64,000 bases of DNA from Tagaea sp. (GTDB taxonomy: Bacteria > Pseudomonadota > Alphaproteobacteria > CACIAM-22H2): NCBI GenBank assembly GCA_965228135.1, contig OZ245798.1, positions 1,803,037-1,867,036 of the forward strand, read 5' to 3'. The notes beneath the pieces are model-generated. The model saw only the letters and a program-made list of their open reading frames with translations, did no database searches and had not been told where the DNA came from. Shown here in pieces: positions 3,087 through 23,254 of this stretch. Position 1 is the first letter of the stretch. Every line of letters starts with the position of its first letter. The translations under genes and the position numbers were made by a program.

Positions 3087-4058
3087 TCAAATATCGAGCG
3101 TCAGCGACGGCGAGTTCGCGCGCGAAACACAAAGGCACATCCGGTCGTTCCGCGCCTTCTCGTCATCCGTCAGGTACATGTCGCGATGATCGGGAACGCC
3201 GTCGAGCACGGGCGTCAGACACGTGCCGCACACGCCCTGCTCGCACGAGACCGGCACGTCGATTCCTTGACGCGCCAAGGCGGCGACGATCGTTTCCGAC
3301 GCGTCAACATCGACCACGATGCCGCTGCGCTTGGCTTCGACCCGAAACCGACCGCCCGTTAAGGGCACGGCGTCGGCGGGCGCCGAGAAATATTCCTTGT
3401 GGAGCAGGTGTTCCGCCAAACCCGCCGCGCGCGCAAGGCTTAGCGCCACGTCCATGAAGGGCGCCGGCCCGCAAGTATAGACATGCGCCGACGGGCCCGC
3501 CGCCGCGATCGTCCGGACAAGCGCTGCTTGCGTCGCGTCGGCGTCCAGACCGGCAAGGATCGTCGCCGACGCGCGCAATTCGCCGCTTTCGAGAATTTCG
3601 CGAAAGGCGGCCGACGCCGGCGCGCGCACGAAGTAATACAAATGGAACTTCGCCCCGCGCGCCACGAGATGACGCGCCATCGCCAAGAGCGGCGTGATCC
3701 CGATTCCGCCGCCGAGCAACAGATGGAACCCGTCGCTTTGCGCGAGCGGAAAATTGTTGCGCGGGGCGCCGATCTCCAGAAGATCGCCCGGCTTCAGCCC
3801 GTCATGCACGAAGGCCGAACCGCCGCGCGACGCCGGCTCGCGCTTGACCGCGATGCGGTAGAAGCCGGTTTCGGCCGGCCCGTTGCACAACGAATATTGG
3901 CGCACGAGGCCGTTGGGCAGATGCAGATCGATATGCCCGCCCGGCGCGCCCGCGACGAAAGCGCCGCCGTCCTGCGGCGTCAGCTCCAGGGCGCGAATCC
4001 CCTCGGCCGCATCCCAGGCCTTGGTCACAAGCACCGCGATACGCCCGGCCATCGTCAC
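3087..4058 (-). CDS. VanB/phthalate-dioxygenase-reductase-like oxidoreductase (FMN/NAD-binding plus plant-type 2Fe-2S ferredoxin)
   Basis: RQYSLCN...FYRIAVKRE...GGS, GGGIGITPLLAMARHL, and a C-terminal CEQGVCGTCLTPVLDGVPDHRD 2Fe-2S motif. The start overlaps the P450 stop (ATGA at 4055-4058). It is a paralog of the reductase domain of the adjacent P450. Confidence 0.85.
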   Translation of the reverse strand: MTMAGRIAVLVTKAWDAAEGIRALELTPQDGGAFVAGAPGGHIDLHLPNGLVRQYSLCNGPAETGFYRIAVKREPASRGGSAFVHDGLKPGDLLEIGAPRNNFPLAQSDGFHLLLGGGIGITPLLAMARHLVARGAKFHLYYFVRAPASAAFREILESGELRASATILAGLDADATQAALVRTIAAAGPSAHVYTCGPAPFMDVALSLARAAGLAEHLLHKEYFSAPADAVPLTGGRFRVEAKRSGIVVDVDASETIVAALARQGIDVPVSCEQGVCGTCLTPVLDGVPDHRDMYLTDDEKARNDRMCLCVSRANSPSLTLDI

Positions 4059-6391
4059 TTCGCGATCTTCAACCGCGCGCCGCGCGCGCGCGAGCAGCAG
4101 CTCATCATCCGGCGCTGACCCGCGCGTTCGGCCGCCGTCAGCACCCGGTCGCGATGCTCGATCTCGCCCTCAAGCACTTCGACCTCGCACGTGCCGCACA
4201 GCCCTTCCTCGCAATCGCTAGGCACGTCGATTCCGACCGCGCGCAAGGATTGCAGCAGCGTGCCCTCCGGCGGCACGATCACCGTCAGATTGGAGTCCGC
4301 GAGTTCGACTTCGAAAGCGCTGTCTTGCGCGCCCGGCGCCGCCGCCGACGCCGCGGCGAAATATTCGAAGCGCAGGATCTCGTCCGGCAAATCGCGGGTC
4401 AAACCCTGCAACGCCTCGATCATCCGATCCGGTCCGCAGGCGTAGAACTGCGTGCCAGGCTTGCGCGCGGCGATCAACGCCGCGAGATCGGCGCGCTGGC
4501 CCTCGGCGCCGATATACAGCGATAGCCGTTCGCCGTGATCCGCCGCCAGCCGATCAACGAACGCCATGCCGGCGCGTCGGCGGCCGGCGTAATGGATCTC
4601 GTATTCCGCGCCGTCGCGTTTCAACCGATCGGCCATCGCCAGGATCGGCGTGATGCCGATCCCGCCGGCGATCAGCACGTGACGGGCGGCGGCGTCGTTG
4701 ATCCGGAAATGGGTGCGCGGCCCGCGAATCAGAATTTCGTCACCCACGCGGATGGCGTCGTGGAAATGCTTCGACCCGCCGCGCCCATCCGCCTCGCGCA
4801 GAATCGCGACGCGGTAATCGCGATCTTCGGGAAGGCCGCACAGCGAGTATTTACGCTCGAATCCGCCATGGATGAGTTCGATATGCGCGCCCGCCGCCCA
4901 ATTCGGCAAAGCGCGTCCCTTCGCGTCGGCCAGTGTCAGGCCGACGATCCCGTCGGCCTCGCGCGTCACCGTCCTCACGCGCACCGCGCGCGCGATCTCG
5001 CGCTTCGACGGCGCGCCAACCGTATAGGACGCGCGCGGCGCATGGACCGACTTGTCCGCACGCTCGGGATTGCGCGCGGGATCCCATTCGACCCAGAGAT
5101 GGTCGGGGCCGCGGAAGGAGGTGTTCGGCAGATAGCTGAAGACCTGGCCGTCGACCAAGCGCATATGCGGCAGACGGCGCGTGAACTCTTCCAGGAAGAT
5201 CCGCATCTCCATCCGCGCCAGGTTCTTGCCCATGCATTGATGGCTGCCATAGCCGAACGTCAGATGATCGACCGCGTTATCGCGATAGATGTCGAAAAAA
5301 TCGCCGTCCTCGAAATGGCGCGAATCGTGATTGCCCGACGCGGTCGCGATCAGCAGCTTGGCACCCGCCGGCAAATCGATGCCGCCCACCGTCACCGCGC
5401 GCGTCGTCTTGCGCCGCCACGCGACGACCGAGCCCGCGTAGCGCAGGCATTCCTCGACCGCGTTGGGAATGAGCTTGGGATCGGCGCAGATATCGTCCCA
5501 CGCCTGACGATGGGTCAGCAGCAGCTTGATCGCATTGGCGGAGGCATGGGCGGTCGTCTCGTGCGCCGCGACGATGATCGCCATCATCATCGAATGCAGA
5601 TAATTGTCGGTAACGACCTCCGGAATCACCTTGTTCTTGCGGATGGCGAAATGCATCCAGCCTTCGCCATCGGGGTCGGTGCGCATCTTGTCGAGGATAC
5701 GGCCCGCCAATTGCCAGAACTTGCCGACCGAATGCGCGACCTCGACCTGCTTTTCGGGCGACGGTCGGCCCCAAGTATTGACCGTATGCGCGATCGAAAA
5801 GCGCCGCAGCGTGTCCATGTCCTCCTCGGGCACGCCCAGGAAATCCAGCGCCACCGTCAGCGGGATCTCCCACAGCATTTCCTCGACCAAATCGGCCTTG
5901 CCGCGGTCGATGAAGGCATCGACCTTCGCGCGCGCATGGCCGCGGATCGCGCCCTCCAGCTTGGCGAGATTTTCCGGCAGGAAATGGTCGAGCAACGCGC
6001 GCCGGCGCTCCATATGGACGGGCTCGTCCTCGTTCACCAGCGTGCGCTTCATGCCGTAATCGTAGCTTTGCAACACGCGCGTCGCTTCGTCGGAGAAGGG
6101 CGTGATTTTCTCGAGCACGTTCTCGGGCGAGAAGGTGATGTTGTCGCGGAAGATCGCCTTGATGTCCTCGAAGCGGCTGACGACCCAGTAGTCGAGCTTC
6201 GGGCTGTAGAACACCGGCTCGCGCTCGCGCGACCAGCGCAACGCGTCCGCCGGATCGACCTGATAGGGACCCTGGAACGGATCGAACGCGGCCGCGTCGT
6301 GCGATACCGGGCACGCGCCCGCCGGTTTCGCGGCCGCAGCACCGTGGAACGGGCAGCCCGCGGCGTTTGAATCCTGTCGCTGGGTTGACAT
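4055..6391 (-). CDS. self-sufficient cytochrome P450 (CYP116B-like): P450 haem domain fused to a PDR-like FMN/2Fe-2S reductase domain
   Basis: The N-terminal ~440 aa carries the haem-thiolate loop FGYGSHQCMGKNLARMEMRIFLEEF and AHETTAHA (I-helix). The C-terminal ~320 aa carries RKYSLCG, GGIGITPILAMADRL and CEEGLCGTCEVEVLEGEIEHRD. This is the architecture of P450RhF/CYP116B enzymes. Confidence 0.9.
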   Translation of the reverse strand: MSTQRQDSNAAGCPFHGAAAAKPAGACPVSHDAAAFDPFQGPYQVDPADALRWSREREPVFYSPKLDYWVVSRFEDIKAIFRDNITFSPENVLEKITPFSDEATRVLQSYDYGMKRTLVNEDEPVHMERRRALLDHFLPENLAKLEGAIRGHARAKVDAFIDRGKADLVEEMLWEIPLTVALDFLGVPEEDMDTLRRFSIAHTVNTWGRPSPEKQVEVAHSVGKFWQLAGRILDKMRTDPDGEGWMHFAIRKNKVIPEVVTDNYLHSMMMAIIVAAHETTAHASANAIKLLLTHRQAWDDICADPKLIPNAVEECLRYAGSVVAWRRKTTRAVTVGGIDLPAGAKLLIATASGNHDSRHFEDGDFFDIYRDNAVDHLTFGYGSHQCMGKNLARMEMRIFLEEFTRRLPHMRLVDGQVFSYLPNTSFRGPDHLWVEWDPARNPERADKSVHAPRASYTVGAPSKREIARAVRVRTVTREADGIVGLTLADAKGRALPNWAAGAHIELIHGGFERKYSLCGLPEDRDYRVAILREADGRGGSKHFHDAIRVGDEILIRGPRTHFRINDAAARHVLIAGGIGITPILAMADRLKRDGAEYEIHYAGRRRAGMAFVDRLAADHGERLSLYIGAEGQRADLAALIAARKPGTQFYACGPDRMIEALQGLTRDLPDEILRFEYFAAASAAAPGAQDSAFEVELADSNLTVIVPPEGTLLQSLRAVGIDVPSDCEEGLCGTCEVEVLEGEIEHRDRVLTAAERAGQRRMMSCCSRARGARLKIAK

Positions 6392-6410
6392 CGAATTACC
6401 TCTTCGCTCG

Positions 6411-7112
6411 CTAATGCCCCAGGAACGCGTGACGGACCCTGGGATCGTCGATCAGATCGCGCGCGCACCCATCGAGCAGCACCTTGCCCGCGGACATGAC
6501 GTAGGCGCGGTCCGCGATGCCGAGAGCGGCCTTCGCGTTTTGCTCGACCAGGAGAATGGAAGTGCCGCGCTTGCCGAGCTGGGCGACGACCTGCATGACT
6601 TGCGCGACGATCATCGGCGCCAATCCCATGCTCGGTTCGTCGAGCAGCAGGCAGCGCGGCCGCCCCATCAACGCGCGCGCGATCGCCAGCATCTGCTGCT
6701 GGCCGCCCGATAGCGTGCCCGCCGGTTGCGTCAAACGCTGATGCAACACCGGGAAGTATCCGAACACTTCGTCGAGAAGCGCCTTGTCCAGCGCGCCGCC
6801 ATGCGCGTAGCCGCCCAGGCGCAGATTGTCCTCGACGGACAGGTTGGTGAAAACCTGCCGTCCTTCGGGCGATTGGACGAGGCCGCGCGCGACGCGCCGA
6901 TGCGCGGGGCACCGGCGCAAATCCTCGCCGTCGAATCGGATGGCGCCGCTTTTGATCGGCATCAAACCGGATACGCAACGCATCAGCGTCGTCTTGCCCG
7001 CACCGTTGGCGCCGATCAGCGCCACGATTTCACCCGCGTCGACCCGCAGGTCGACGCCGTGAAGAACTTCGATCCGGCCATAGGCGGCGGCGACGGCGGT
7101 GATCTCAAGCAT
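6411..7112 (-). CDS. ABC transporter ATP-binding protein, LivF type (branched-chain amino acid / HAAT family)
   Basis: GANGAGKTT Walker A, LSGGQQQMLAIARAL signature, LLLDEPSMGLAP. The track ORF extends to 7214; the true start is MLEITAV at 7112, overlapping the LivG-type stop. Confidence 0.88.
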   Translation of the reverse strand: MLEITAVAAAYGRIEVLHGVDLRVDAGEIVALIGANGAGKTTLMRCVSGLMPIKSGAIRFDGEDLRRCPAHRRVARGLVQSPEGRQVFTNLSVEDNLRLGGYAHGGALDKALLDEVFGYFPVLHQRLTQPAGTLSGGQQQMLAIARALMGRPRCLLLDEPSMGLAPMIVAQVMQVVAQLGKRGTSILLVEQNAKAALGIADRAYVMSAGKVLLDGCARDLIDDPRVRHAFLGH

Positions 7113-7881
7113 GGGAATCCGCCTCCACGCCCAGATACGCTTCGATGACCAGCGGATCGGCTGCCACTTCCCGCGGCATGCCCTGCGCGATCTTTCGCCC
7201 GCCGTCCAACACATAGACGTAGTCGGACACGGACATCACCATTTCCATGTCGTGTTCCACCAGCACCATCGAAAGCCCGTCGGCACGCAGTTGCTCGATC
7301 AGTGCCCTGATTTCCGCCGTCTCGACGGCGTTGCAGCCGGCCGCCGGCTCGTCGAGCAACAGAAGCTTGGGCGAGGTCGCCAAGCTGCGCGCGATCTCCA
7401 GCCGTTTCATCTGGCCGTAGCTGAGACTCGTCGCCGGCCATTCCGCCTTGTCGGCGAGATCGACCCGGCGTAGCAATTCGACCGCGCGTTCGGCCATGTA
7501 TTTGCGTTCGCGATGCATGCCGGGCGCGCCGAGCAGATTGGCGAGCAGCGAGGCCTGGCGATGCTGATGGAAGCCGACCATCACGTTCTCGACCGCCGAA
7601 AGCTGGTCGAAGATGCGCAGATTTTGGAAGGTCCGCGACAACCCCATCCGCGCCAGTTCGTGCAAGGATTTGCGCGCGATATCCATGCCCTCCAGCACGA
7701 GCCGCCCGGCGCTGGGCTGGTAGACGCCGGAAATCAGATTGAACAATGTCGTCTTGCCCGCCCCGTTGGGGCCGATCACCGCGGTCACGCGTCCGCGTTT
7801 GGCCGACATGCCCACCGATTGCAGGGCCGCGATGCCGCCGAATTCGACCGACAGATTCTCGACGTTCAGCACGTCATCCAT
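7105..7881 (-). CDS. ABC transporter ATP-binding protein, LivG type
   Basis: GPNGAGKTTLFNLISG, LSYGQMKRLEIARSLA, LLLLDEPAAG. Confidence 0.88.
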   Translation of the reverse strand: MDDVLNVENLSVEFGGIAALQSVGMSAKRGRVTAVIGPNGAGKTTLFNLISGVYQPSAGRLVLEGMDIARKSLHELARMGLSRTFQNLRIFDQLSAVENVMVGFHQHRQASLLANLLGAPGMHRERKYMAERAVELLRRVDLADKAEWPATSLSYGQMKRLEIARSLATSPKLLLLDEPAAGCNAVETAEIRALIEQLRADGLSMVLVEHDMEMVMSVSDYVYVLDGGRKIAQGMPREVAADPLVIEAYLGVEADSHA

Positions 7882-8839
7882 GGCGGTTGCCCTTGCGTAA
7901 AGCGAGTAGCGAAGGCACCAGGCCGCGGCCCAGGAAGACCATCGTCGCCATCATGATCAAACCGATGAAGGTCTGTTCGTACTCGCGCACGAAGGTCAGC
8001 ACCTGGGGCAGCAGCGTCAGCATCGCCGCACCGACCATCGCCCCGGATACCGACGTGGCACCGCCGAGCACGGCCATGGTCAGGAATTCGACCGAATGCA
8101 GCAGGTGCGCAGCCGACGGATCGACGAACTCGTTGAACTGGGCGAACAACGCGCCCGCCAGCCCCGCATAGGCCGACGCGATCGTGAACGCGGCAAGCTT
8201 TTCCTTCGCCACGTCTACGCCCAGCGTGCCGGCGGCGACGTCCGATCCGTGCAGCGCCACCAAGGCGCGGCCCGATGCGCTATGACGCAGATTGATCGCG
8301 ACATACATGCCGATCAGCGCGATCGGCGCGATCAGCCAATACCAGGCGGCGGGCGTCGAAAGCCGCAAACCCAGCACCTGGAAAATCTGACGTACCGCCG
8401 GCACCTGCACGGCCATTCCGTCCGATCCACCGGTCAGCCAGCGTTCATTGCCCGCGACCAGCGTCACCAGCACGCCGAAGGCGAGCGTGACGATGGCCAG
8501 ATACGGGCCTTTGAGACGCAGGATCGGCCGGCCGATCGCCCAGCCGGCGATCGTGGCCGCGAAGGTTCCCGCCGCCAGCGCCAACACGGGATGGATGCCG
8601 AATCGATCGGGCAGAATCGCGCAGACATAGGCGCCGATGCCGAAGAAGCCGGCATGCCCCAAGCTCGCGAGCCCCGCATAACCCAGCAGGACGACGAGCC
8701 CCAACACCGCCAGGCCGTTGATCATCACCAGCGTGGCGACACGGTAGTGATAGTTCGTCTGGAAGAAGAACGGCAGGACGATGATCGCCGCCAGCGCGAT
8801 CAGGACAGGCAGATAGATGTTCGAGCCGAGCTTGCGCAT
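7874..8839 (-). CDS. ABC transporter permease, LivM type
   Basis: Polytopic hydrophobic protein of typical LivM length and layout; it overlaps the neighbouring genes by a few nucleotides. Confidence 0.8.
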   Translation of the reverse strand: MRKLGSNIYLPVLIALAAIIVLPFFFQTNYHYRVATLVMINGLAVLGLVVLLGYAGLASLGHAGFFGIGAYVCAILPDRFGIHPVLALAAGTFAATIAGWAIGRPILRLKGPYLAIVTLAFGVLVTLVAGNERWLTGGSDGMAVQVPAVRQIFQVLGLRLSTPAAWYWLIAPIALIGMYVAINLRHSASGRALVALHGSDVAAGTLGVDVAKEKLAAFTIASAYAGLAGALFAQFNEFVDPSAAHLLHSVEFLTMAVLGGATSVSGAMVGAAMLTLLPQVLTFVREYEQTFIGLIMMATMVFLGRGLVPSLLALRKGNRHG

Positions 8840-8840
8840 G

Positions 8841-9713
8841 TCAGACGCGCTCCTGCAACGCGCGGCCGAACAGACCGTTGGGCATGAAGATCAGCACCAG
8901 GATGATGACCAGGAAGGGGCTCGCTTCCTTATAGGCGGAGGAGATCCAACCCGCCGTGATCGCTTCGATCAGGCCGATCGCCAAACCACCCACGACGGCG
9001 CCCAAAGGCGAACCCAGCCCGCCGAGCATCGCGCCCGCAAAGCCCTTAAGGGCGAGCGGAATGCCGATCTCCGCATTGGTTAGCGTGATCGGCGTCACCA
9101 GAATGCCGCCCAGCGCCCCGACCGCCGCCGAAAGGCCGAAGCTCAACGACACGACGAAATTCGTGTCGATGCCCACGAGCCTTGCCGCGTCGCGATTATT
9201 GGCCGCCGCCAGCACCGCCTTGCCGATCAGCGTGCGGGTGAAGAAGACGAACAGTGCCGCCAGGATCGCAGCGGTCGAACCCATGACGACCAGGCTTTGG
9301 ATCTGAACGGTGGCGCCGGCGATGCGCAGCGGCGCGTCGCTAAAAAGCGGTGGCAGACTGTGCGACTGCTTGTCGAAGACGATCTGCGCGATCCCGCGTA
9401 CGAAGATCGACGCGCCGATCGTGATGACGATGAGGGAGACGGTCGAACTGCTCTGCGCCGGTTCGATCGCCAGTTTCTGCAGCGCCAAGCCGCAGGCGAT
9501 CGCCACGACAATGGCCGCGGCGGCGGCGGCCGGCAAAGGCAAACCCCAATAGGCGAGGAAGACCGTCCCCATGCCGCCAAGCATCACAAACTCGCCCTGC
9601 GCGAAGTTCACGACGCTGGATGCGTTGAAGATGATGATCAGGCCCAGCGCAATCAGCGCGTAGATGGCGCCGACCGTCAGGCCCGAAAAGAGAATCTGGA
9701 GGATATCGGCCAT
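8841..9713 (-). CDS. ABC transporter permease, LivH type
   Basis: Hydrophobic BPD permease; the likely start is MADILQILFSGL at 9713 (track ORF starts at 9767). Confidence 0.8.
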   Translation of the reverse strand: MADILQILFSGLTVGAIYALIALGLIIIFNASSVVNFAQGEFVMLGGMGTVFLAYWGLPLPAAAAAAIVVAIACGLALQKLAIEPAQSSSTVSLIVITIGASIFVRGIAQIVFDKQSHSLPPLFSDAPLRIAGATVQIQSLVVMGSTAAILAALFVFFTRTLIGKAVLAAANNRDAARLVGIDTNFVVSLSFGLSAAVGALGGILVTPITLTNAEIGIPLALKGFAGAMLGGLGSPLGAVVGGLAIGLIEAITAGWISSAYKEASPFLVIILVLIFMPNGLFGRALQERV

Positions 9714-9809
9714 TGTCCTGGGGGGGAGTGGGTGTCGGGAGACGGGAAGCGCGTCCGGCGCCGGCATCGCCGTCTTGCGGCGGAAATGCCGGCGCGGTCG
9801 CGGCTATGC

Positions 9810-10967
9810 TCAATCGTCGAGCAGCGCCCAGCGGCCGTTCTTCACCTGGATCATGCGGAACGACGTATCGCCCAGTCCCATGTGATCGGCCGGCGTCATC
9901 GTCACGATGCCAGTCGTCGCCACCAATCCCTTGGTCGCTTCGATCTGATCACGAATCTTTACGGGCGATGCGGATTTTCCTGCGCGTTCGATCGCCCCGA
10001 CCAGGATCGCAAAGGCGTCGCGCGCGTAACCGGCGTAGGATGACACGGGTTCGTTGTGCTTGCCTTCGTAGGCGCGCTTGAACTCGACCGCGACCACCTT
10101 CTGCGGATCGTTCGCCGGCAGCAATTCGGCGACCAGCAGCACTGATGCCGGCAGGCGAATACCTTCCGCCGCCGCACCGCTCAGCTTCAGGAAATCGTCC
10201 GAAGCAACGCCGTGCGATTGATAGAACGGCGTCTTCATGCCGAGCTGGGCGTAGCCCCGCGTGACCACCGCCGAGCTGTGGCCGAAACCCGGATTGATGA
10301 TGGCACCGACCCCCGCAGCGGCGCGGATGCGGGTCAATTGCGGAGTCATGTCGGCGTCGCTGTCCTCATAGGTCTCGTCGGCGACCACGCGCACTTTCGC
10401 CTCTTCGGCGGCGATCTTGCACTGCTGACGCATCGAAGCGCCTGTACCGCCGTTGCTGGAGATCAGCGCCACACCATCGATTCTGCGGCGGACGATATCC
10501 GCGAAGATCTTGCGGCAAGCCATCAAGTCGGTTTCAGGCGTCTTGAAGACGAATTTTTTCACCGGCTCGACGATCGTGATCGCGCTAGCGAGCGAGATCA
10601 GCGGAATCTCCGCCGATTCGAAGACCGGGATCATCGCCATCGTCGCAGGCGTCGTCGATCCAGCGATCGCAGCGACGATCTTGTCTTCTTCGACCAGACG
10701 CGTCGCGAATGTTTTGGCGCGGTTGGGATTTCCGGCGTCGTCATAGACGACCAGGCGCACGCGCTCGCCGTTGATACCGCCCTTGGCGTTCACCTCGTCG
10801 ACCAGCATGCGCAGCGTCTTGGCTTCCGGATCTCCCAGGAACGAAGCGCCCCCGGTGATCGCCAGCGACGCGCCGATCACGATTTCGGCACGCACCGCGG
10901 AAACGCCCGCCAGCAGCGTCGCACCGACCGCGAATGCACAAATTCCGCCCAAAAATCTGGATTTCAT
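9810..10967 (-). CDS. periplasmic substrate-binding protein, LivK/Leu-Ile-Val-binding family (ligand possibly aromatic)
   Basis: Signal peptide MKSRFLGGICAFAVGATLLAGVSAVRA followed by a type-I periplasmic binding fold. It is the first gene of the minus-strand operon that ends with the P450 and reductase. Confidence 0.8.
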   Translation of the reverse strand: MKSRFLGGICAFAVGATLLAGVSAVRAEIVIGASLAITGGASFLGDPEAKTLRMLVDEVNAKGGINGERVRLVVYDDAGNPNRAKTFATRLVEEDKIVAAIAGSTTPATMAMIPVFESAEIPLISLASAITIVEPVKKFVFKTPETDLMACRKIFADIVRRRIDGVALISSNGGTGASMRQQCKIAAEEAKVRVVADETYEDSDADMTPQLTRIRAAAGVGAIINPGFGHSSAVVTRGYAQLGMKTPFYQSHGVASDDFLKLSGAAAEGIRLPASVLLVAELLPANDPQKVVAVEFKRAYEGKHNEPVSSYAGYARDAFAILVGAIERAGKSASPVKIRDQIEATKGLVATTGIVTMTPADHMGLGDTSFRMIQVKNGRWALLDD

Positions 10968-10989
10968 GATGCTTCCTCCCTTGGCGACG

Positions 10990-11060
10990 ATGCGCCGTGA
11001 TTGACTTTTGTCGAGCCGTTATTTACGTATTGTAAAAATCGTTTACGACGTTTTCATACA
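10990..11060. promoter_or_regulatory. divergent promoter region with TTTACG-type direct and inverted repeats (candidate IclR/LuxR operator)
   Basis: AT-rich cgttatttacgtattgtaaaaatcgtttacgacgttttcatacatcac between the transporter operon and the VanA-like gene. Confidence 0.3.
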
Positions 11061-11118
11061 TCACGATCTCGGGCACGGTCAAGCGCCGGAAGCGAACGAA
11101 AGAACGAAAGGGAAGGAA

Positions 11119-12186
11119 ATGCCGTATTTGCAGAACGCTTGGTACGTCGCGTTGTGGGGCGACGATCTGCCGCCCGGCGCGATCCAATCGCGCCGCATTC
11201 TCGATGTGCCGTTGGCGATCTATCGCGGTCATGACGGACGTTTGTCCGCGCTGACCAACGCATGCCCGCATCGCTTCGCGCCGCTGTCGGAAGGCAAGGT
11301 GCTGGCCGACGGCACGCTGCAATGCCCCTATCACGGCCTGCAATTCGATGGCACGGGCCAATGCGTGCGCAATCCGCACGGTGCGGGCCTGATCCCGCGC
11401 GCAGCGCAGGTGCGCGCCTTCACGGTGCATGAAAAGGATGGCATCGTGTGGATATGGATGGGTGCGCAAACGCCCGACATCGCCAAGATCCCCGCCTATC
11501 CGATGCTCGGCGAGCCCGGCCGCCCGCGCTCGAAGAAGGATTGGCTGCGCATCAATTCGAGCTATGAGCTGATCATCGAGAATCTTCTCGATCTCAGCCA
11601 TGTCAGCTTTCTGCATGACGGCATTCTGGGGAATTCGGAAACCGTCACCGCCAAGATCAAGGTCCATCACGAAGGCGACGTAATCCGCGTCGATCGCGAA
11701 ATGACCGACGTGACGAGCCCCGGCCTGTTCGACCTGCTTTACCGGCGCGACGCCGGCAAGGTCGATATGTGGACCAACATCACCTGGACGGCACCCGCGA
11801 CTTTGGTCAACGACGCGGGCGTAGTCGACGTGGGCAAGCCGAAATCCGACGGAACCGGCATTTTCGGCCATCACTTCCTGACGCCCGAGACCGCGCACAC
11901 GACGCTCTATCATTTCTGCGCCGTAATGCAGAATCCCCTGCCCCACGCGGCGGACGACGACGTGCGCCGCCAATTGACGGATCTGCGCCGCAAGGCCTTC
12001 GACGAACAGGACAAGATGATCATCGACGCGCAGCAGCGCGCCCTTCTCGATCCCGCGATCGATACGCAAAAGCCGGTGATGCTGGAGATCGACGCAGGCC
12101 CGATGCGCTTTCGCCGCCATCTTGAAAAACTGATCGCGGATGAAGCCGCGCGCGCGCGCCTGGCCGACCAGGCCGTCGGCGGATGA
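11119..12186 (+). CDS. Rieske non-haem iron oxygenase, VanA-like (class IA, phthalate family; O-demethylase or hydroxylase oxygenase component)
   Basis: Rieske CPHRFAPLSEG...CPYHGLQFD; the start is ATG at 11119 after AAGGGAAGGAA (the track ORF at 11008 is over-extended). Confidence 0.85.
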   Translation: MPYLQNAWYVALWGDDLPPGAIQSRRILDVPLAIYRGHDGRLSALTNACPHRFAPLSEGKVLADGTLQCPYHGLQFDGTGQCVRNPHGAGLIPRAAQVRAFTVHEKDGIVWIWMGAQTPDIAKIPAYPMLGEPGRPRSKKDWLRINSSYELIIENLLDLSHVSFLHDGILGNSETVTAKIKVHHEGDVIRVDREMTDVTSPGLFDLLYRRDAGKVDMWTNITWTAPATLVNDAGVVDVGKPKSDGTGIFGHHFLTPETAHTTLYHFCAVMQNPLPHAADDDVRRQLTDLRRKAFDEQDKMIIDAQQRALLDPAIDTQKPVMLEIDAGPMRFRRHLEKLIADEAARARLADQAVGG

Positions 12187-12575
12187 GCGGCAACGTTACC
12201 CGGCTGCGGCGCGCGGACGCCGGCGAGATTCGTCCGATCGGTACGCGCGACCTCGCGGCGCGCGCGGGCCGGCCGGACGCGGACGAATCCGCGATCGTCG
12301 CCGACGCATGGCGTCTCTTGCGCGGACAGGTGCCGCTCCGGATCGCCGAACAATTCCCGCGCGGCGGATTCCTCGATGCGACACACGAGTTGTGCGAGGC
12401 GGTTTTCGGCGGGGCGCTATGCGCCTTGACGCTGGAATATACCTCGCGCGGCGGCCCCTATCGCGCCACGCTGCGTCTCGCGGCGCCCGACCGGATCGCA
12501 ACGGGCGAAAGCGCCCGCTCCGCCGCGATGGCGCTGATCGTCGCCTTGTTGGACGGCAATCACAACCGCCCGTAA
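12183..12575 (+). CDS. hypothetical 130-aa protein translationally coupled to the VanA-like gene
   Basis: The ATG overlaps the oxygenase stop (ATGA at 12183-12186) and ends 23 bp before the iclR start. There is no recognisable motif, and it could be spurious. Confidence 0.3.
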   Translation: MSGNVTRLRRADAGEIRPIGTRDLAARAGRPDADESAIVADAWRLLRGQVPLRIAEQFPRGGFLDATHELCEAVFGGALCALTLEYTSRGGPYRATLRLAAPDRIATGESARSAAMALIVALLDGNHNRP

Positions 12576-12597
12576 CGTCGGGCCGAAGGCAAGTCAC

Positions 12598-13353
12598 GTG
12601 TCGAAGGAAGATAAAGACATCGCGGGCATCCAGTCGATCGAAGTCGGCGCCGCGATCCTGTTTGCGCTCGCCCAGATCGGCCGCCGCGCCACGCTCAACG
12701 AAATCGCCAGCGCCACCGGCATGGTGCCGGCCAAGCTGCATCGCTATCTGGCCAGCATGATGAAATCCGGGCTCGTGGTGCAGCCGAAGAAGGCGGGCGT
12801 CTACGCGCTGGGGCCCGGCGCCATCCGCATCGGCCTCGCCGCCCTTCAGCAGAACGATTTCTGCACCATCGCGACCCAGCATTTGGGCGAGATTCGCGAC
12901 GCGCTCGACGTCACCTGCTTCGGCGCGGTGCTCGGCAAGCAAGGTCCGACGATTTTCGCCCAGGAAGTGGCCGCCAACAACGTGGCGGTCTTCGTGCGTG
13001 TGGGTTCGGTTCTGCCGATGGAAAATTCCTCAACTGGCTGGGCTTTCGGCGCGTTCATGAGCGACAGCCAATACCGCGCCGTCTGCGGCATCGAGCGCGC
13101 CCGCGCGCCGGAAGCTACGCTCAAACGGCACCGGGAAGTGAAAAAGCATGGTTGCGCGCGCATTACGGACGAATATGTGCGGGGCATCAGCGCGATCTCC
13201 TATCCGGTATTCGGGCTGAACAACGCGATCGAGGGCGTGATCACGGCGCTGGGCGCGACCGGCAATTTCGATAACGCGGTCGACGGCCTGATTTCGAAGA
13301 AATTGCGCGAGGTCGCCAGCCAAATCGGCCGATCGCTGGGCGCGAACGTCTAA
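12598..13353 (+). CDS. IclR-family transcriptional regulator
   Basis: N-terminal wHTH (RATLNEIASATGMVPAKLHRYLASMMKSGLV) plus a C-terminal IclR effector domain. IclR regulators commonly control aromatic catabolic operons. Confidence 0.85.
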   Translation: MSKEDKDIAGIQSIEVGAAILFALAQIGRRATLNEIASATGMVPAKLHRYLASMMKSGLVVQPKKAGVYALGPGAIRIGLAALQQNDFCTIATQHLGEIRDALDVTCFGAVLGKQGPTIFAQEVAANNVAVFVRVGSVLPMENSSTGWAFGAFMSDSQYRAVCGIERARAPEATLKRHREVKKHGCARITDEYVRGISAISYPVFGLNNAIEGVITALGATGNFDNAVDGLISKKLREVASQIGRSLGANV

Positions 13354-13418
13354 AGCGATTTTGGTTCGATTTGCCACTATCCGGCGGCGATGCAGCGTGC
13401 GGATGCTCCAACGAAAAA

Positions 13419-13448
13419 GGGCCCGGACATGCGGTCCAGGCCCTTATT
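13419..13448 (+). terminator. intrinsic terminator-like hairpin after iclR
   Basis: GGGCCCGGAC-atgcg-GTCCAGGCCC followed by TTATT, with an A-run upstream. Confidence 0.5.
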
Positions 13449-13461
13449 CACTTCAAACCAA

Positions 13462-13531
13462 TGATGGGCGATGTAGGGCTCGAACCGACGACAAGCTGAT
13501 TAAGAGTCAGCGGGTAGGTCGAACTAATCCC
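13462..13531 (-). pseudogene. tRNA-Lys(CTT)-like fragment; the 3' half is intact and the 5' half is degenerate
   Basis: On the minus strand, an anticodon arm GCTGA-CTCTTAA-TCAGC (anticodon CTT), a T-arm GTCGG-TTCGAGC-CCTAC and an acceptor 3' strand ATCGCCC-A. The upstream GGGATTAG... cannot form a D-arm or pair with the acceptor. It sits exactly at the left GC-content break. Confidence 0.4.
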
Positions 13532-13958
13532 AAAGCTCAAGCGCGTCCCTCAACGAGGACGATATTGCTTATGCTTTGACCGAAAAGTCATTTCGAAGGA
13601 CTCTCAGTCCTACGTGATGATCGCTAAATCAATTGGTAAACGGCATTAAGTGGCATGCCCCAGGATTGTTGGATACCAATATAGGTATCTGGCTTGATGG
13701 GGTCGATGGCCCCTGCATCTAGCCTTACGGTGCCGTAGGCTAGTGGCCTTTAACCAGCCAGGGGAGACAGTCCACCCCATCAGGCCAGTAGTGACGTTAC
13801 CTTTGCCCGATAACGATTACGGCCTCCTTCAGGCATTAGAAGTTCTGACCGTTGAGCAACTATTGCGAAGCTTGCCACTAAAGCTTTCGCAGTATCCCTT
13901 CTCCCAAGGGCATTCAGAGCCGATAAACAGCGACTTCGAACAAATCTGCGCGAGCTAG

Positions 13959-14204
13959 TCACTTACCTGAGGCAGGCTTGGCACGACGAAAGCGCTGGGC
14001 AGGTGTCAAAAGGCCGTGCGAGGTCGATCTGAGCGCGACAGCAAGCTTGTCGAGCATATCCAATGACGCTGCGTAACGCTCGGTCTCCAGAAGCGAAACA
14101 TAGCTGCGGTCAATACCCGCAGCCATCGCCAGGGCTTCCTGGGACATCGCCCGCTCCCGCCGGATACGGCGCAAATTGATTGCCAAAACCCGTCTCGACC
14201 GCAT
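13959..14204 (-). CDS. XRE-family (Cro/CI-type) HTH transcriptional regulator
   Basis: LRRIRRERAMSQEALAMAAGIDRSYVSLLETERYAASLDMLDKLAVAL. A 60-aa ORF (13780..13962) is coupled downstream by a GTGA overlap. Confidence 0.75.
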   Translation of the reverse strand: MRSRRVLAINLRRIRRERAMSQEALAMAAGIDRSYVSLLETERYAASLDMLDKLAVALRSTSHGLLTPAQRFRRAKPASGK

Positions 14205-14313
14205 TCCCGGAGGGGACCAAGTTGCGGCCGAACGATCCACAGAGTATATTCAACAAATTATACTCATAGCCTGTACCCATCAGCAGGCAGGAATCCGCCT
14301 CGCGGCAACCAAG

Positions 14314-17612: not shown

Positions 17613-20600
17613 ATGGCGCGCGACGAACTCGAAGACGACCTTCTACGAACTCGCGCTGGACGCCTCGACGAGTCCGCCGAGCTTTCAAATATAAGGCGAC
17701 TATTAAGCACGCCGCGCAGCCGAAGCGTCTATCTGCCTTCCTTCCGGCATCAACCGCGGCAAACTCGCCCATTCCGGGAGCTCGAGCACCGGTTTCCCAC
17801 AGCGTACCGCGTCGCCGCCACCAACGGCGCCGTCGTATCGACGTTTCATTTCCAGCAAACGTTCCTGTCGAGACGCCCGCTGCCGTCGTTACCGCGATCA
17901 GTGCAGACGGGTAAGCGGACAATAATTTGGCCGACTCGCGGCCAAGCAAAGTTCGTGAGATCTTCTGTCGCCGGTGCGCGGTATCACCGCGATCAACGCG
18001 TCTGGACAGTCCCAAGTGACCATCGATTTCTGAGAACGGCCCTAGGCAAGGCTCTCTCCTCGCCGCTCGCGAGGGCTACAGCAACTTTAAGACGCACGAG
18101 AACCAGCCGCGATGGGATAAAGCGCCAAGCAATCTGGTTTGCGCACTATCTCACAAGAACCGGCCCCCTCGCCGATCGTGCCGACGAACTCGTTCACGAT
18201 AGGGCGGGCCCGATCGTCGAAGGCACAATCGGCAAATCCGCTGCCGAGCTATCGAGCTTTTGGAGTGCTGCAGACGCGGCGGAACCTCGGGTCGATGGCA
18301 GGATTCAAGAGCGTCTCATTATTGAGATTCCTCACTGGCTGCCGCCCGAGGAGATGCGAAAAGCCCTTCAGCGGTTCGGCGCCGAACTGACCGCGCGTGG
18401 CGTGCCCTGGGTCGGTGCTGTGCACAGGCCCGACCCCCATGGGGATCCACGTAATTATCACGTTCATATCGTTCTCGGAACACGGGGGCTAATCGGATGG
18501 GAGATGCGCGCCGTTGACAACGATCCAGGCACCCTTCGCCGCGAACCGATCTTCGCCGATAAGAAAGATCGCGCAATGCAAGGGGAGAAGTGGATCTCAC
18601 ACTTGCGCAAGATCTACGCTGAAATCGTCAATCAAATCTCGATCGAATGGTCGCAGCGCGAAGGAACATTGGTGCCGCGCATTTTCCACGCCGGCAGCAA
18701 TGCCGAACTCGGCATCGAGGCTATACCATCCCGGCATCGAGGCCCTCGGCAAAGCGCGATCGATCGACGTATCGTCGCGCGCGGCGATGAACCTCGCCAC
18801 GTTCCAATTTACGAAGTCCAAGATGAACCCCGCATGGCGCAGATTCTGCGTGGCTTCAATGCCGATGAGGCGGCTTTTCTCGCGCTCTGCGACCGCATAG
18901 AACGCCTCGTCGTCGACGCAGATGCGACTGAATCCATTAGAAGCAGCCGCGCATCGCTGATCACAGCCGCCGACACAACTGCAGCGGCGATTGAGCTGTG
19001 CGAAGAGAAAATCGAAGCGGTCTTGGTCGAATTTCAGGTGGATCGTGACGATGAAAGCCCGATCACCGATCATGATCGAATGTCATCCGACAGCATCCGC
19101 GAACTCGTCGATGCGGTCCGTGTAACCGTTTCTCGTTCCCACGATATCGAAAAGGAACTGATCGCGGTGCTCGCGCATAGCGAGACCATTCGTGACATTT
19201 CGCCGATCACCGAAAGCGCGGCCGCAGAGACAAAATCAGCGAAAGAATTGGAGCAAGCGGAAGCGACGATTGATCACCTGCCTGCCATAAATAAGTCGGT
19301 CATTCATCCGATCGAAGAACAGCACCTTTATGCCAATCCTTCTTCTGGTGAGCGTCCTGAAACTGAACGGTCTGAGCCATCGCACCACGTGCTGGTTACG
19401 TCGCCGCCCGAGCAGCCACAAAGTATCATCGCCGTTAAAGATACTCTTACACGGAGGCTCCAAGACCATCATAGAGCTATTATGCTCATCAAAGAACGAG
19501 GCTGGCGTCACGGGGCTACGGCGACCCGGCACGCCGAAGCTCGAGAAGCTCAGTTCGAGGCATTCAAAAGACGCCTCGCCGCGGAGGAAGCGGCCGAACG
19601 CTGTGAACGTCTCGTCAAATCAATCTCTGAAAGTTCATTCGAGAGTATCGGGCCAAATGACGCGTCACCACACGGCGCGAGCCACCACAACAATCAGTGC
19701 GACTTTGAACAACTCTTAAAAGAATTGGAATTAGCTGATCATCGTATATCGGAAACGCAGCAGGCGCTCGAACATTGGGAAGATATCGAGCGGAAGCTAC
19801 AGGACGTCCCCTTCATCGACGAACGTTTGCATGACCCAAAAAACTTGGTACCGCGGATACTCGAAGAATCTGACCCAGACTGGGTCATCGCAGAAATTCA
19901 AAGACAATTGAAAAAGTGCCGCTGGGTTCCGCGACACCGTGGTCAAAGAATTGTGAAGCCGATGCTTCGCGATGCCGACATCACTCTCGGCGACGTGGTT
20001 GAAGCACGAGTCCGTTACTCGCAAGAGAATGGTTGGACGATTGAATTTCCGCGCTTCTCCAGCGAGAGCGCGCGCCGTGACGCTACGGATCAACAGTGCC
20101 TTTGGATGGCGTTGATTACTCAGATGTTCATGACCACCACGCAAAGTGTCGGTAGCAAAGAGATTGCCGGTATTCTCAAGTGTTATGGCTTCACAAAAAT
20201 CGAGCCCGATAAGAACGGCATCATTGAGATTCGTAGATCTGACGGCTTGCTGCGCGTCGCACGTGATGGTCGCTTTGCAAGCGTCTACGGGTCCAATGTG
20301 GACCTGCATGCGGCGTTCGACGCGTTTGCCCACGCACGCCATGACAGTAGCAGCGACATTGCATTACAGAAAATCCTTGAAAGCAAGAAAGAGCCTCCGC
20401 TCGTTTTTTATCCTAACGATGCCGATCGCAAAGTCGATCTGATTAAGATCGCTAACGATATTCTTCACTTACATGAACTCCAGCCAATCGATCGTCAGCG
20501 CGTTCAGCACGTCGGTCATGCGTTGAAGAAGCACGAGAAGGCGCTAGAGACCTTTCATCCGACATTGAAGCCGGCCGAGAAGCAAGTCGCAGTAGATGAC

Positions 20601-21295: not shown

Positions 21296-21346
21296 CTCTT
21301 AAAACCGCTCGAAAGAGCCAAGCCGCGACGCGGCCGTTTTTAAGAC
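21296..21346. repeat. inverted repeat CTCTTAAAACCGCT-(22 bp)-GGCCGTTTTTAAGAC (site B) after an AT-rich stretch; candidate recombinase/att or oriT-like site
   Basis: Same arms as site A at 17289/17410. Preceded by ctaagttattgtaaataatatactatttagattt, about 240 bp upstream of the recombinase start. Confidence 0.55.
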
Positions 21347-21581
21347 CCCAGCTTGACAATGTCCGCATGGATAGGACGAGCAAATCCAGCGGCCGGGGCG
21401 GCATCTACGCCCCTGAGCCGGCGCCCAGCGAGGGCGCCGGCGGCCGATCAGATTCGTCCTCGACCCTCCATGCCCAAGCGAACGAACTTCTACGTACCCT
21501 TGCACGTCTGCTTGTGCACGACAGCGAATTGCAGCAGCCTCAAGCGCCGATGGATAAGACCTCAGATCAGCCGAAGGACGA

Positions 21582-23243
21582 ATGCAAATGATCAGGGCTG
21601 CGATCTACGCACGCTATTCCAGCGACTTGCAGCGCGAATCCTCGATCGACGATCAGGTCAGAATTTGCCGGGAGCGGATCGAACGCGACGGCGGCGCCGT
21701 TACGGAAACCTACGCCGACGCAGCGATCAGTGGATCGCGTGCAGCAAACCGCCCTTCACTTCAACGACTGGTAAGCGACGCTCGCCTTCGTCGGTTCACT
21801 CACGTCTATATGGAGGCGCTGGACCGACTGAGTCGCGACCAGGAAGACGTTGCCGGACTGTTCAAGCGGTTACGTCATGCGGACGTGACCGTCATCACGT
21901 TGAGCGAGGGCGAAATCAGCGAACTGCACGTCGGGCTAAAGGGCACGATGAACGCCCTCTACCTAAAAGACCTTGCTGACAAGGTACGACGCGGCCAGCG
22001 CGGCCGTGTGGCCCAACAACGAGCGGCAGGAGGACTCGGATACGGATACGATGTCGTTCGGAACATCGACAGCGATGGCGAGATCGATCGTGGCGTCCGC
22101 GCGGTCAACGAGACCGAGGCAGGCGTGATCCGGCGTATTTTTGGCGAGTATGTGGCTGGTAGATCACCCCGCACCATCGCACGAAACTTGAATGCAGATG
22201 GCGTTCCTGCGCCGCGCGGGGGCGCCTGGAATGCGTCAACAATAAATGGGCATCCCGTGCGCCTGCACGGTATCCTGACAAATCCCTTATTCAATGGCGT
22301 GATGATCTACAACCGTGTCGGTTATCGCAGGGATCCAGAAACGGGAAAGCGTCAACTCCGCTCGGTACCATCGGACCAATGGGTCCATGTTGAGATGCCG
22401 CATTTACGTATCGTCGACCCTGATACTTGGAACAAAGCACAATCGATTCGAGGCCAACTCGGTCAGACAAAGCGCCTAAACCATACTCATAGGCCCAAGC
22501 ACCTGCTGTCGGGGCTCATACGTTGCGGCATTTGTGGCGGAGCATACACGGTGGTCGCCTCAGGCCGACTTGGCTGTGTTGCACGCCGCGAAAAAGGGAC
22601 ATGCACCAACGCGCGGTCGGTAAAAACCGAGGAACTAACCACACGCGTGCTATCGGGAATCAAACAGCGCCTTCTGTCTCCTGCGATGTTCGCCGAATTT
22701 ATGGAAGAATTTCAGGCGACGCAGTCCGCCCGCGATAAGGCCGAGATCGACAACATGGCCGCACTCCGTCGAGAAGAGCGGGAACTCAATCAGCGAATCG
22801 AACGTTACGTGACCGCTATTGGGGATGGAACAGACAGCCCTGCAGTTCGGAAAGCCCTAATCGAGGCAGAGAATCGGATCGCCGCGATTCGCGCCGAAAT
22901 GTGCAAATCCAAACCGCCGTCGGCCCCCGAACTGCATCCGGCGTTACCTGAGCTATACCGTCGGCGCGTCGAGCAGCTTGAACACGCGTTCGCCAATGAC
23001 CCGACAAACAGAGCGCGAGCTGCCCAGATCATCCGGTCCCTCGTGGAGCAGATTCGGGTATTTCCCCAGGACGCGCGCGGTGCTGTCGAAATTGAGGTCG
23101 CAGGCGCCATCGCCCAGATACTGGCGTTGGCACAACAAAAAGACGTCGAAGATCAAATGGATGGAATGATGGTCTCGATGGTGCCCGGGGCCGGAATCGA
23201 ACCAGCGACACTGCGATTTTCAATCGCATGCTCTACCAACTGA
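21582..23243 (+). CDS. large serine recombinase (resolvase/invertase N-terminal domain, recombinase domain, zinc ribbon, coiled-coil)
   Basis: AAIYARYSSDLQ (catalytic Ser), LDRLSRD, and CGICGGAY...C..C zinc ribbon. The last ~22 codons read through the tRNA-Phe gene on the opposite strand. Confidence 0.9.
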   Translation: MQMIRAAIYARYSSDLQRESSIDDQVRICRERIERDGGAVTETYADAAISGSRAANRPSLQRLVSDARLRRFTHVYMEALDRLSRDQEDVAGLFKRLRHADVTVITLSEGEISELHVGLKGTMNALYLKDLADKVRRGQRGRVAQQRAAGGLGYGYDVVRNIDSDGEIDRGVRAVNETEAGVIRRIFGEYVAGRSPRTIARNLNADGVPAPRGGAWNASTINGHPVRLHGILTNPLFNGVMIYNRVGYRRDPETGKRQLRSVPSDQWVHVEMPHLRIVDPDTWNKAQSIRGQLGQTKRLNHTHRPKHLLSGLIRCGICGGAYTVVASGRLGCVARREKGTCTNARSVKTEELTTRVLSGIKQRLLSPAMFAEFMEEFQATQSARDKAEIDNMAALRREERELNQRIERYVTAIGDGTDSPAVRKALIEAENRIAAIRAEMCKSKPPSAPELHPALPELYRRRVEQLEHAFANDPTNRARAAQIIRSLVEQIRVFPQDARGAVEIEVAGAIAQILALAQQKDVEDQMDGMMVSMVPGAGIEPATLRFSIACSTN

Positions 23244-23254
23244 GCTACCCGGGC
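23179..23254 (-). tRNA. tRNA-Phe (anticodon GAA)
   Basis: Minus strand reads GCCCGGGTAGCTCAGTTGGTAGAGCATGCGATTGAAAATCGCAGTGTCGCTGGTTCGATTCCGGCCCCGGGCACCA. This is a canonical 76-nt cloverleaf, near-identical to E. coli tRNA-Phe, with CCA encoded. Confidence 0.95.

Follow-up and report, generated by a model that had tools for sequence, protein, structure and literature searches.

The locus examined here raises a simple question: why is an island inserted at a tRNA-Phe gene bounded on its far side by a fragment of a different tRNA? In phages and islands that use tyrosine integrases, the attP site adjoins the int gene, and the far end of the island is recognised by a displaced tRNA 3' half. In the window, which is the whole 64,000-nt stretch of Tagaea sp. 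DNA analysed in this study, GC content falls from 0.67 to 0.55 at about 13.4 kb and stays low over roughly 13.4–23.2 kb, and an island of ~9.7 kb (about 13.45–23.19 kb) is inserted at tRNA-Phe(GAA), the sole tRNA gene that ARAGORN detects in the window at its default setting. An earlier sequence-only reading had expected the far bound of the island to be a repeat of the tRNA-Phe 3' end and, having noticed a tRNA-Lys-like segment there instead, had offered two successive events, a crossover in a shared T-loop segment, or the relic att site of an older element as explanations. The observation itself, a tRNA-Lys-like relic at the left edge of the island, is confirmed, and the interpretation attached to it proves partly right. 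The features on which the argument depends are collected in Table 1.

Table 1. Features at and around the island, in window coordinates.
Feature	Position	Strand	Basis and remarks
IclR regulator, last gene of the host-like left flank	12598–13353	+	Pfam; no synteny in other Tagaea genomes
Intrinsic terminator hairpin, 12-bp stem and T-run	13417–13445	-	20 nt downstream of the relic, same strand
Well-preserved core, from the anticodon stem to 12 nt beyond the tRNA end (TCA + TTGGTTTGAAG)	13451–13511	-	Match to the L161 core
tRNA-Lys(CTT) relic (pseudo-tRNA)	13465–13531	-	Rfam, ARAGORN -ps80, alignment to genuine tRNA-Lys(CTT) genes; anticodon CTT at 13502–13504
Stretch homologous to the left end of the L001 element, with the 71-nt block 13574–13644 and two short hairpins	13486–13644	.	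BLAST, alignment
Degenerate 5' stub GGG--ATTAGTTC..., D arm unrecognisable	13512–13531	-	Rfam alignment; defects common to the L001 copy GGGATCAATCC
XRE-type HTH regulator	13959–14240	-	Pfam HTH_3, 2.6e-11
MobA/MobL (MobQ-like) relaxase, 1153 aa	17613–21074	+	Pfam PF03389; distant MobQ/TraA relatives on plasmids
Large serine recombinase (LSR), 553 aa	21582–23243	+	Pfam Resolvase PF00239, Recombinase PF07508, Zn_ribbon_recom PF13408, all above cut-offs
LSR attR core	23172–23190	-	Predicted crossover CC 23189–23190, tRNA-Phe last 10 nt 23179–23188, arm TCGAGAC 23172–23178; from relatives' architecture and dyad
Intact tRNA-Phe(GAA), integration target	23179–23254	-	ARAGORN; Rfam 70.7 bits

Identity of the tRNA-Lys(CTT) Relic

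On the minus strand, the relic reads GGG--ATTAGTTCGACCTACCC/GCTGA CTCTTAA TCAGC/TTGTC/GTCGG TTCGAGC CCTAC/ATCGCCC A, followed by TCA at the position where genuine alphaproteobacterial tRNA genes encode CCA; the start at 13462 given in the earlier reading takes in these three nucleotides. The Rfam tRNA model (RF00005) aligns to it over its whole length with 20.1 bits, short of the 29-bit gathering score, and with E-values of 2.9 in an 11-kb search and 0.057 in a 221-nt search. In this alignment, the 5' acceptor strand carries a 2-nt gap and the D arm is absent, the anticodon arm (GCTGA/CUCUUAA/UCAGC) is intact, the T arm contains one mismatch, and the acceptor 3' strand is present as ATCGCCC followed by A. 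ARAGORN reports nothing at its default setting or at 90% and calls tRNA-Lys(ctt) at the 80% threshold only. With a subthreshold score, no D arm, a gapped 7-bp acceptor stem and no default call, the segment is not a functional tRNA gene. The Rfam alignment therefore upholds the earlier description of the segment as a tRNA-Lys(CTT) whose anticodon arm, T arm and acceptor 3' strand survive and whose 5' part is ruined, and the covariance-model run that it had called for returned no intact tRNA with a normal D arm.

The affiliation to tRNA-Lys is indicated by several comparisons. The relic shares 82.7% identity over 52 nt with a genuine tRNA-Lys(CTT) gene of Sinorhizobium meliloti (BLAST), its 17-nt anticodon arm is identical to those of the S. 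meliloti and Azospirillum tRNA-Lys(CTT) genes, and its T loop matches that of S. meliloti exactly and that of Azospirillum at all but one position. From its Lys-type CTT anticodon arm and this BLAST similarity, the segment is classified as tRNA-Lys(CTT)-derived, the resemblance being, on these comparisons, above chance. The 5' stub, GGG--ATTAG, resembles a real tRNA 5' end, the 5' and 3' strands of the relic pair with each other, and the 3' end is of the Lys type.

Gene Content and Class of the Island

The recombinase encoded at the right end of the island combines a catalytic Resolvase domain with Recombinase and zinc-ribbon domains, which identifies it as an LSR. Among the six larger island ORFs scanned against Pfam, a relaxase accompanies this recombinase, no type IV secretion domain is present, and the tyrosine-integrase domain PF00589 is likewise absent. 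Its predicted domain content places the island among the integrative mobilizable elements, driven by a serine recombinase and not by a tyrosine integrase, and a long repeat of the tRNA-Phe 3' half is therefore not to be expected. The premise that such a repeat should form the far bound of the island consequently falls away, since the recombinase is an LSR whose relatives leave only a 12-bp repeat.

Near the left end of the island, the 71-nt block, conserved in the related L001 element at positions 5282–5352, has two short hairpins (TGAC-CGAAAA-GTCA and GGAC-TCTCA-GTCC). The window continues after the block with TAAGTGGCATGCCCC, which we take to resemble a MobQ-type nick region as known from RSF1010, and the region of the block is a possible candidate for oriT. 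A weak Rfam CRISPR-DR60 match inside the relaxase gene (18853–18893; 24.9 bits against a cut-off of 45, E 0.58) is almost certainly a chance match. A metagenome contig, L014, encodes an N-terminal LSR part that is 96% identical at the amino acid level to that of the window (window 21324–22606), and the 3.6 kb upstream of its LSR show no nucleotide similarity to the window's island. This contig suggests that the recombinase module moves from one element backbone to another.

The tRNA-Phe Junction and the Site Architecture of the Recombinase

The last 65 nt of the LSR gene run antisense to tRNA-Phe (23179–23243), and the encoded protein ends in ...VPGAGIEPATLRFSIACSTN before the stop codon. Relatives with 36–55% identity, found in metagenome and viral contigs, show the same convergent antisense layout against tRNA-fMet, tRNA-Met, tRNA-Ser(GCT) and tRNA-Phe, and nearly all of their ORFs end in the antisense translation of the target tRNA (...VVPxxG[ILF]EP[PA]T...). 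In the window and in relatives P0002–P0100, the last 14–21 residues derive from the tRNA antisense strand, ending in ...IEPATLRFSIACSTN for tRNA-Phe, ...AGAGFEPATFRL for tRNA-fMet and ...AEEGLEPPTRGL for tRNA-Met, each directly before the stop codon. The LSRs of two phages in attP form, P0005 and P0007, have a different ending after VVPRAG. Since the LSR ORF spans the junction and has a different tail in its attP form, integration would change the C-terminus of the recombinase, and this change might affect its activity or stability.

Contigs in attP form hold just the last 12 nt of the tRNA, inside an imperfect palindrome of the form GTATCGN-10 nt-CC-10 nt-NCGATAC, in which 10–14 of 17 positions around the CC are matched against 4.25 expected by chance (for example, L136, L112, L095, L104, L153 and L096). 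From this dyad symmetry, together with the repeats of two elements (exact in L063 and 10/12 in L001), we infer that crossover takes place at the CC of the junction between the T stem and the acceptor stem, 12 nt from the tRNA 3' end, with the element restoring the last 10 nt of the tRNA. The right junction of the window, CCGG[CC]CCGGGCACCA TCGAGAC, fits this geometry, in that the CC is followed by 10 nt and an NCGATAC-like arm with the LSR gene antisense, and is thereby recognised as an attR. The element at tRNA-fMet in L063, for which both ends are present, has a matching left arm and an exact 12-nt repeat (score 20.8), and the top-scoring left site of L001, CTATTGG TGGTTCCGAA CCCGGGGCAACA, lies at a GC boundary and scores 16.8, where the background is about 14; its repeat matches at 10/12 positions.

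The same scan, which recovers both of these left sites, was applied to positions 1–23150 of the window, and no left site of this kind (a GTATCGN-like arm, 10 nt, CC and the last 10 nt of the tRNA) scored above background; the window lacks an attL of this LSR clade. A tRNA-Phe 3' repeat was also sought directly, both to the left of the tRNA-Phe gene and inside the island, with a negative result, as the earlier reading had noted for the left edge. The 25-mer and 16-mer from the tRNA-Phe 3' end have no other copy in the window, and Smith-Waterman and blastn-short searches returned nothing. The 12-mer with up to two mismatches has 18 matches, compared with about 9 by chance (1 of 100 shuffles reached 18), and the tRNA-Phe gene itself is the only one of them that is on the tRNA strand and within the island or at an edge of it; the nearest other match, 12809–12820 (10/12), falls within the intact IclR gene.

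An 8-bp repeat, AATGATGG, present at 13460–13467 and 23162–23169, was considered as a crossover core and rejected. The codons for VSM between the CCA and the 8-mer are conserved in relatives (LLVAM in the phage attP form P0005), and the sequence from the CCA to the 8-mer therefore belongs to the element. The empty site predicted by this model, CCATCGAGACCATCATTGGTTTGAAG, was not found in the genome contig collection, which lacks the species of the window.

Several further observations concern the LSR clade at large. In the contigs L014–L152, its members lie at tRNA 3' ends, mostly at tRNA-Met(CAT), whose two sequence types are read as initiator and elongator, and additionally at tRNA-Phe and tRNA-Ser(GCT). 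The T-loop sequence GGTTCGA of the tRNA lies 4 nt nearer to the CC than the corresponding outer motif of attP, a shift reminiscent of the different spacing of attB and attP in serine integrases. A group of contigs (L103, L109, L110, L111, L114, L117–L119, L122, L129 and L144) carries, beside the recombinase, a tRNA-fMet 3' half of ~47 nt starting from the anticodon loop in place of the 12-nt one. The left arms of these contigs lack the palindrome (4–5 of 17), and the contigs may represent a second attP type, cut prophage ends or junctions. In L108, L120 and L141, the tRNA 3' end and the arm motif occur by the recombinase gene in two tandem copies ~100 nt apart, which may be tandem or leftover att sites. 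Two stretches at tRNA-Phe with an LSR ~55% identical to that of the window (L154:170-2957 and L167:6690-11692, the latter read to a point short of the element's left end) have one to two tyrosine-integrase genes directly upstream of the LSR on the same strand, and the gene list of the contig encoding P0004 shows a weak integrase match or fragments just past the left end of a related element. An Rfam search for weak tRNA-like sequence at the far ends of five tRNA-fMet elements covered a 68-kb space with an E-value cut-off too strict for such sequence. Relatives in the phage and plasmid collections are too distant to be informative.

Comparison with Related Tagaea Genomes

The TfoX gene in the flank assigns the window to Tagaea (Rhodospirillales). 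Of two further Tagaea genomes, one (L001/L002) carries a smaller related element at the same tRNA-Phe, with an LSR of 69% identity (69.8% at the nucleotide level of the gene), and the other (L003) has an empty site. Host DNA is ~90% identical among the window, L001 and L003 (90–97% in the flank), with this identity starting at the CCA end of tRNA-Phe, and the 3' half of tRNA-Phe is identical in the window and L003 as far as read. The left flanks of the three genomes are unrelated, so that tRNA-Phe is a synteny break point. In the window, the left flank (3087–13353) is an accessory cluster for aromatic catabolism that includes a P450-reductase fusion, a VanA-like Rieske oxygenase, a Liv-type ABC transporter and the IclR regulator. 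This IclR is rare, its nearest homologue outside the source genome being 67% identical, and no close orthologue was found. Exact look-ups with the TfoX, IclR and LSR proteins of the window revealed no empty site and no orthologous left flank.

The comparison with L001 is informative about the relic itself. In tRNA sense, the window and L001 align without a break from the 71-nt block (78.9% identity, BLAST) through the 5' stub and the anticodon arm as far as GTCGTCG (13486–13492; T-stem 5' strand), where the homology ends at the boundary between T stem and T loop and the sequences become unrelated. The alignment of the whole stretch scores 44, against 18.9 +/- 3.0 for shuffled sequences, with none of 500 shuffles reaching the score; for the relic part alone, 2 of 1000 shuffles did. 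The L001 copy of the relic is more decayed, has the same 2-nt acceptor deletion and two substitutions as the window copy, and lies ~55 nt inside the left site of its element. Divergence of the relic region from L001 (65–79% identity) is of the order of that of the LSR gene and not of that of the host DNA. Since the relic is homologous to the interior of the L001 element and diverges as the element does, it is, on this comparative evidence, element-borne, belonging to the mobile element and not to the integration event at tRNA-Phe. A second L001 sequence, GGTTCCGAACCCGGGGCAACATCCCCTCCA, was considered as a tRNA-like homologue of the 3' third of the relic and set aside (p about 0.045–0.27); it is better described as the L001 left arm with a decayed tRNA-Phe repeat.

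These data bear directly on the possibility that the relic was once a native tRNA-Lys(CTT) gene of the host, now decayed, with its own terminator, the element ending to its right at about 13532. A tRNA-type terminator follows the relic, the relic lies at the GC break and its 5' stub looks like a tRNA 5' end, all of which would suit a host pseudogene. The 5' two-thirds of the relic, including its specific defects, are nevertheless homologous to the interior of the L001 element, internal to the left site of that element, and the divergence is element-like and not host-like. Moreover, neither an LSR left site nor a tRNA-Phe repeat is found to the right of the relic. A host origin is judged decidedly unlikely.

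The proposal that strands were exchanged within the segment GGTTCGA/TCGAACC shared by tRNA-Phe and a tRNA-Lys-like attP fares still worse and is rejected. It draws on the presence of GGTTCGA in both units, on the end of the homology between the window and L001 at the boundary of T stem and T loop, and on the single mismatch in the T stem of the relic. Such an exchange should have produced chimeric tRNAs, and neither unit is chimeric: tRNA-Phe scores as a perfect tRNA, its 3' half equals that of the empty site as far as read, and the Lys-type 3' end of the relic pairs with the relic's own 5' strand. The mismatch in the T stem is explained by an A-to-C change that is also found in L001.

A Probable Tyrosine-Integrase Attachment Core for tRNA-Lys

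A search of viral contigs with GGTTCGAGCCCTACATCGCCCA, which comprises the T arm and acceptor strand of the relic, gave exact matches in L160 and L161. Both matches are tRNA-Lys(CTT) 3' halves, neither contig contains a full tRNA gene, and the fragment in L161 lies directly before a tyrosine integrase gene (PF00589) in the classic attP-int layout. The relic core and the L161 core start at the same nucleotide, the first G of the anticodon stem, and end within 1–2 nt of each other. By manual count, 56 of 61 positions are identical, the five substitutions being spread evenly along the core (3/27, 0/20 and 2/14) without the mark of a hybrid junction; one of them is the A-to-C change discussed above. 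After the CCA position, likeness to L161 continues for about 11 nt (TTGGTTT[C/G]AAG; 10 of 11 match), and no similarity to L161 is seen on either flank outside the core. Probing the viral contigs with an element-specific variant of the relic and with the conserved 17-mer gave nothing or chance matches.

In its extent, from the anticodon stem to just past the 3' end with unrelated DNA around it, the relic agrees with the att cores used by tyrosine integrases. Two other attributes of such cores are missing: the other end of the element holds no intact cognate tRNA, as tRNA-Phe is the only tRNA gene in the window, and no tyrosine integrase of the element was found, either as a PF00589 domain in the six larger island ORFs scanned or in a tblastn search of the window with the L161 integrase. 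The relic thus has the extent of a tyrosine-integrase attP core for tRNA-Lys(CTT) with a degenerate 5' stub added. From the one phage contig L161, we infer that it may be the vestige of an earlier, tyrosine-type integration module of the element family.

A different role for the relic follows if the pseudo-tRNA is a working left arm, that is, a functional left half of attP that mimics a tRNA 3' end. Crossover would then have occurred at the terminal CA (13462–13467 and 23179–23180), no repeat would be expected, and the terminator would be that of the original tRNA-Phe gene. Serine recombinases need only 2 bp of identity, both junctions read CA followed by T, and the ORF of the reconstructed attP would end in ...GDVGLEPTTS before its stop codon, similar to the integrated tail GAGIEPAT. 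The sites of the family are, however, centred on a CC lying 12 nt within the tRNA, and the right arm of the window is canonical for that position. In addition, L001 has, at the same tRNA-Phe, a separate left arm and repeat beyond its relic, and the 11 nt after the window relic match the tRNA-Lys core of L161 and not the flank of a tRNA-Phe gene. This reading implies an empty site in which tRNA-Phe would be followed directly by TCATTGGTTTGAAG and the window terminator; the empty site in L003 looks different. The palindrome and repeat analyses led to the downgrading of this terminal-CA crossover, which is regarded as very unlikely.

Loss of the Left End

The explanation preferred here, to which roughly an even chance of being correct is assigned, combines a vestigial, element-borne tRNA-Lys core, an LSR-driven insertion at tRNA-Phe and a loss of the left end through recombination at the relic. 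The element family would have carried the tRNA-Lys att core from an earlier integration module, beside the present position of the LSR and its attP. The LSR would then have inserted the element canonically into tRNA-Phe through a 2-bp (CC) crossover, with the element supplying the last 10 nt of the tRNA, and the far end would be expected to consist of the LSR left arm followed by the 12-bp tRNA-Phe repeat, as in L001. In the genome of the window, the terminal spacer, the LSR left arm and the 12-bp repeat would subsequently have been lost, presumably when the element-borne core recombined with a putative native tRNA-Lys(CTT) gene. Such an event could have deleted or inverted the DNA in between, leaving a hybrid pseudo-tRNA and a stranded element. 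The direction of two of the earlier suggestions, that of two successive events and that of a relic att site of an older element, agrees with this evidence for an element-borne tRNA-Lys core and an LSR-driven insertion at tRNA-Phe.

The main competitor is a plain terminal deletion. On this reading, the relic was carried within the element as a passenger, and the final 60–90 bp of the element, along with some host DNA, were removed by an unrelated deletion whose endpoint happened to fall just beyond the relic; the terminator would be that of the convergent IclR gene. In its favour, L001 has the canonical left site that is missing from the window, and its relic is internal; the bidirectional hairpin is situated 60 nt downstream of the IclR stop codon; and no trace of a hybrid junction is seen in the core substitutions. 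Such a deletion would, on the other hand, have had to end within about 7 nt of the end of the core block, directly in front of a hairpin that has its better T-run on the tRNA strand, and the 11 nt past the 3' end of the relic are still like the L161 core (10/11). Recombination at the core is favoured over a random deletion because a strong terminator, with its better T-run on the tRNA strand, lies within 7 nt of the end of the 61-nt core block and because synteny breaks at that point. A deletion of this kind is considered unlikely.

Several points weigh against the preferred explanation. The proposed partner, a native tRNA-Lys(CTT) gene followed by the window terminator, is unseen, the window being the part of the source genome that was read. 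The evenly spread substitutions of the core carry no mark of a hybrid junction, and the 12-nt repeat of L001 is imperfect (10/12). Furthermore, the tRNA-like 5' stub suggests the capture of a whole tRNA gene and not of a core-only attP, the 3' end reads TCA and not CCA, and the tyrosine-integrase history is drawn from one phage contig. In a stronger form of the recombination model, the element would keep the tRNA-Lys(CTT) core as a working second att site, so that its own LSR acts at tRNA-Phe and the tyrosine integrase of resident L161-like phages acts in trans at tRNA-Lys; both routes would have been used here, fusing the tRNA-Phe and tRNA-Lys loci and deleting or inverting the DNA between them. 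This form has only a small chance of being correct.

Implications

Fragments of tRNA genes at island edges are routinely attributed to the integration event from which the island arose, an attribution that would be wrong in the present case. The edge fragment of the window derives from a different tRNA, rides with the element and is uninformative about the current recombinase, an LSR that leaves a 12-bp repeat; the case is therefore useful for the annotation of island boundaries. If recombination did occur at the relic, it would show that chromosomal deletions or inversions from one tRNA locus to another can arise through vestigial att cores. The analysis additionally documents an alphaproteobacterial LSR clade directed at tRNA 3' ends (Phe, fMet, Met and Ser), with definable sites and a reading frame that crosses the junction. 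This apparent tRNA-targeting clade and its junction-spanning ORF may be regarded as the most interesting by-products.

Comparison with Known Systems

The att cores that phages and islands with tyrosine integrases derive from tRNA 3' halves resemble the relic in the span of the block and, for the core beside the PF00589 integrase of L161, in an end-to-end match. They also resemble it in its location at an island edge, in the orientation of the tRNA, and in lying between mobile and host-like DNA. The window differs from them in lacking a tyrosine integrase (six larger ORFs; tblastn) and in having tRNA-Phe and not tRNA-Lys at the other end, and the relic differs in its degenerate 5' tRNA stub and, as L001 indicates, in a copy that rides inside the element.

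Integrative mobilizable elements combine a recombinase with a relaxase or oriT and have no conjugative pore of their own (review PMC5704250). The island agrees with them in its ~9.7-kb size, recombinase, MobA/MobL relaxase, small regulator and absence of a T4SS domain in the ORFs scanned, and departs from them in that its left att site is absent. Its mobilizability is predicted from its genes. Self-excision of the island, with this left att site missing, is unlikely.

With the LSR attP/attB systems of phiC31, Bxb1 and A118, the recombinase of the window and its clade share the domain composition, the imperfect attP palindrome on a central dinucleotide and very short repeats. In contrast to these systems, the clade targets tRNA 3' ends, restores the last 10 nt of the tRNA and has an ORF that crosses into the tRNA antisense strand, and the window keeps the right junction only. 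A serine recombinase combined with a tRNA-Met(CAT) site has been described for the Paracoccus phage vB_PamS_Pami6 (PMC6536676), the only tRNA-targeting member of such a kind retrieved in the literature search.

Prophages and islands that have lost one att site are known as "grounded" or stranded (PMC6379469). The window resembles them in retaining an intact LSR gene and one junction, the other junction being lost and the synteny of the flank broken, and differs in what occupies the lost end, a second and unrelated att relic of tRNA origin that may have mediated the loss. With its vestigial att core and stranded mobilizable element, the window adds a further example to kinds that are already known, a fairly ordinary scar.
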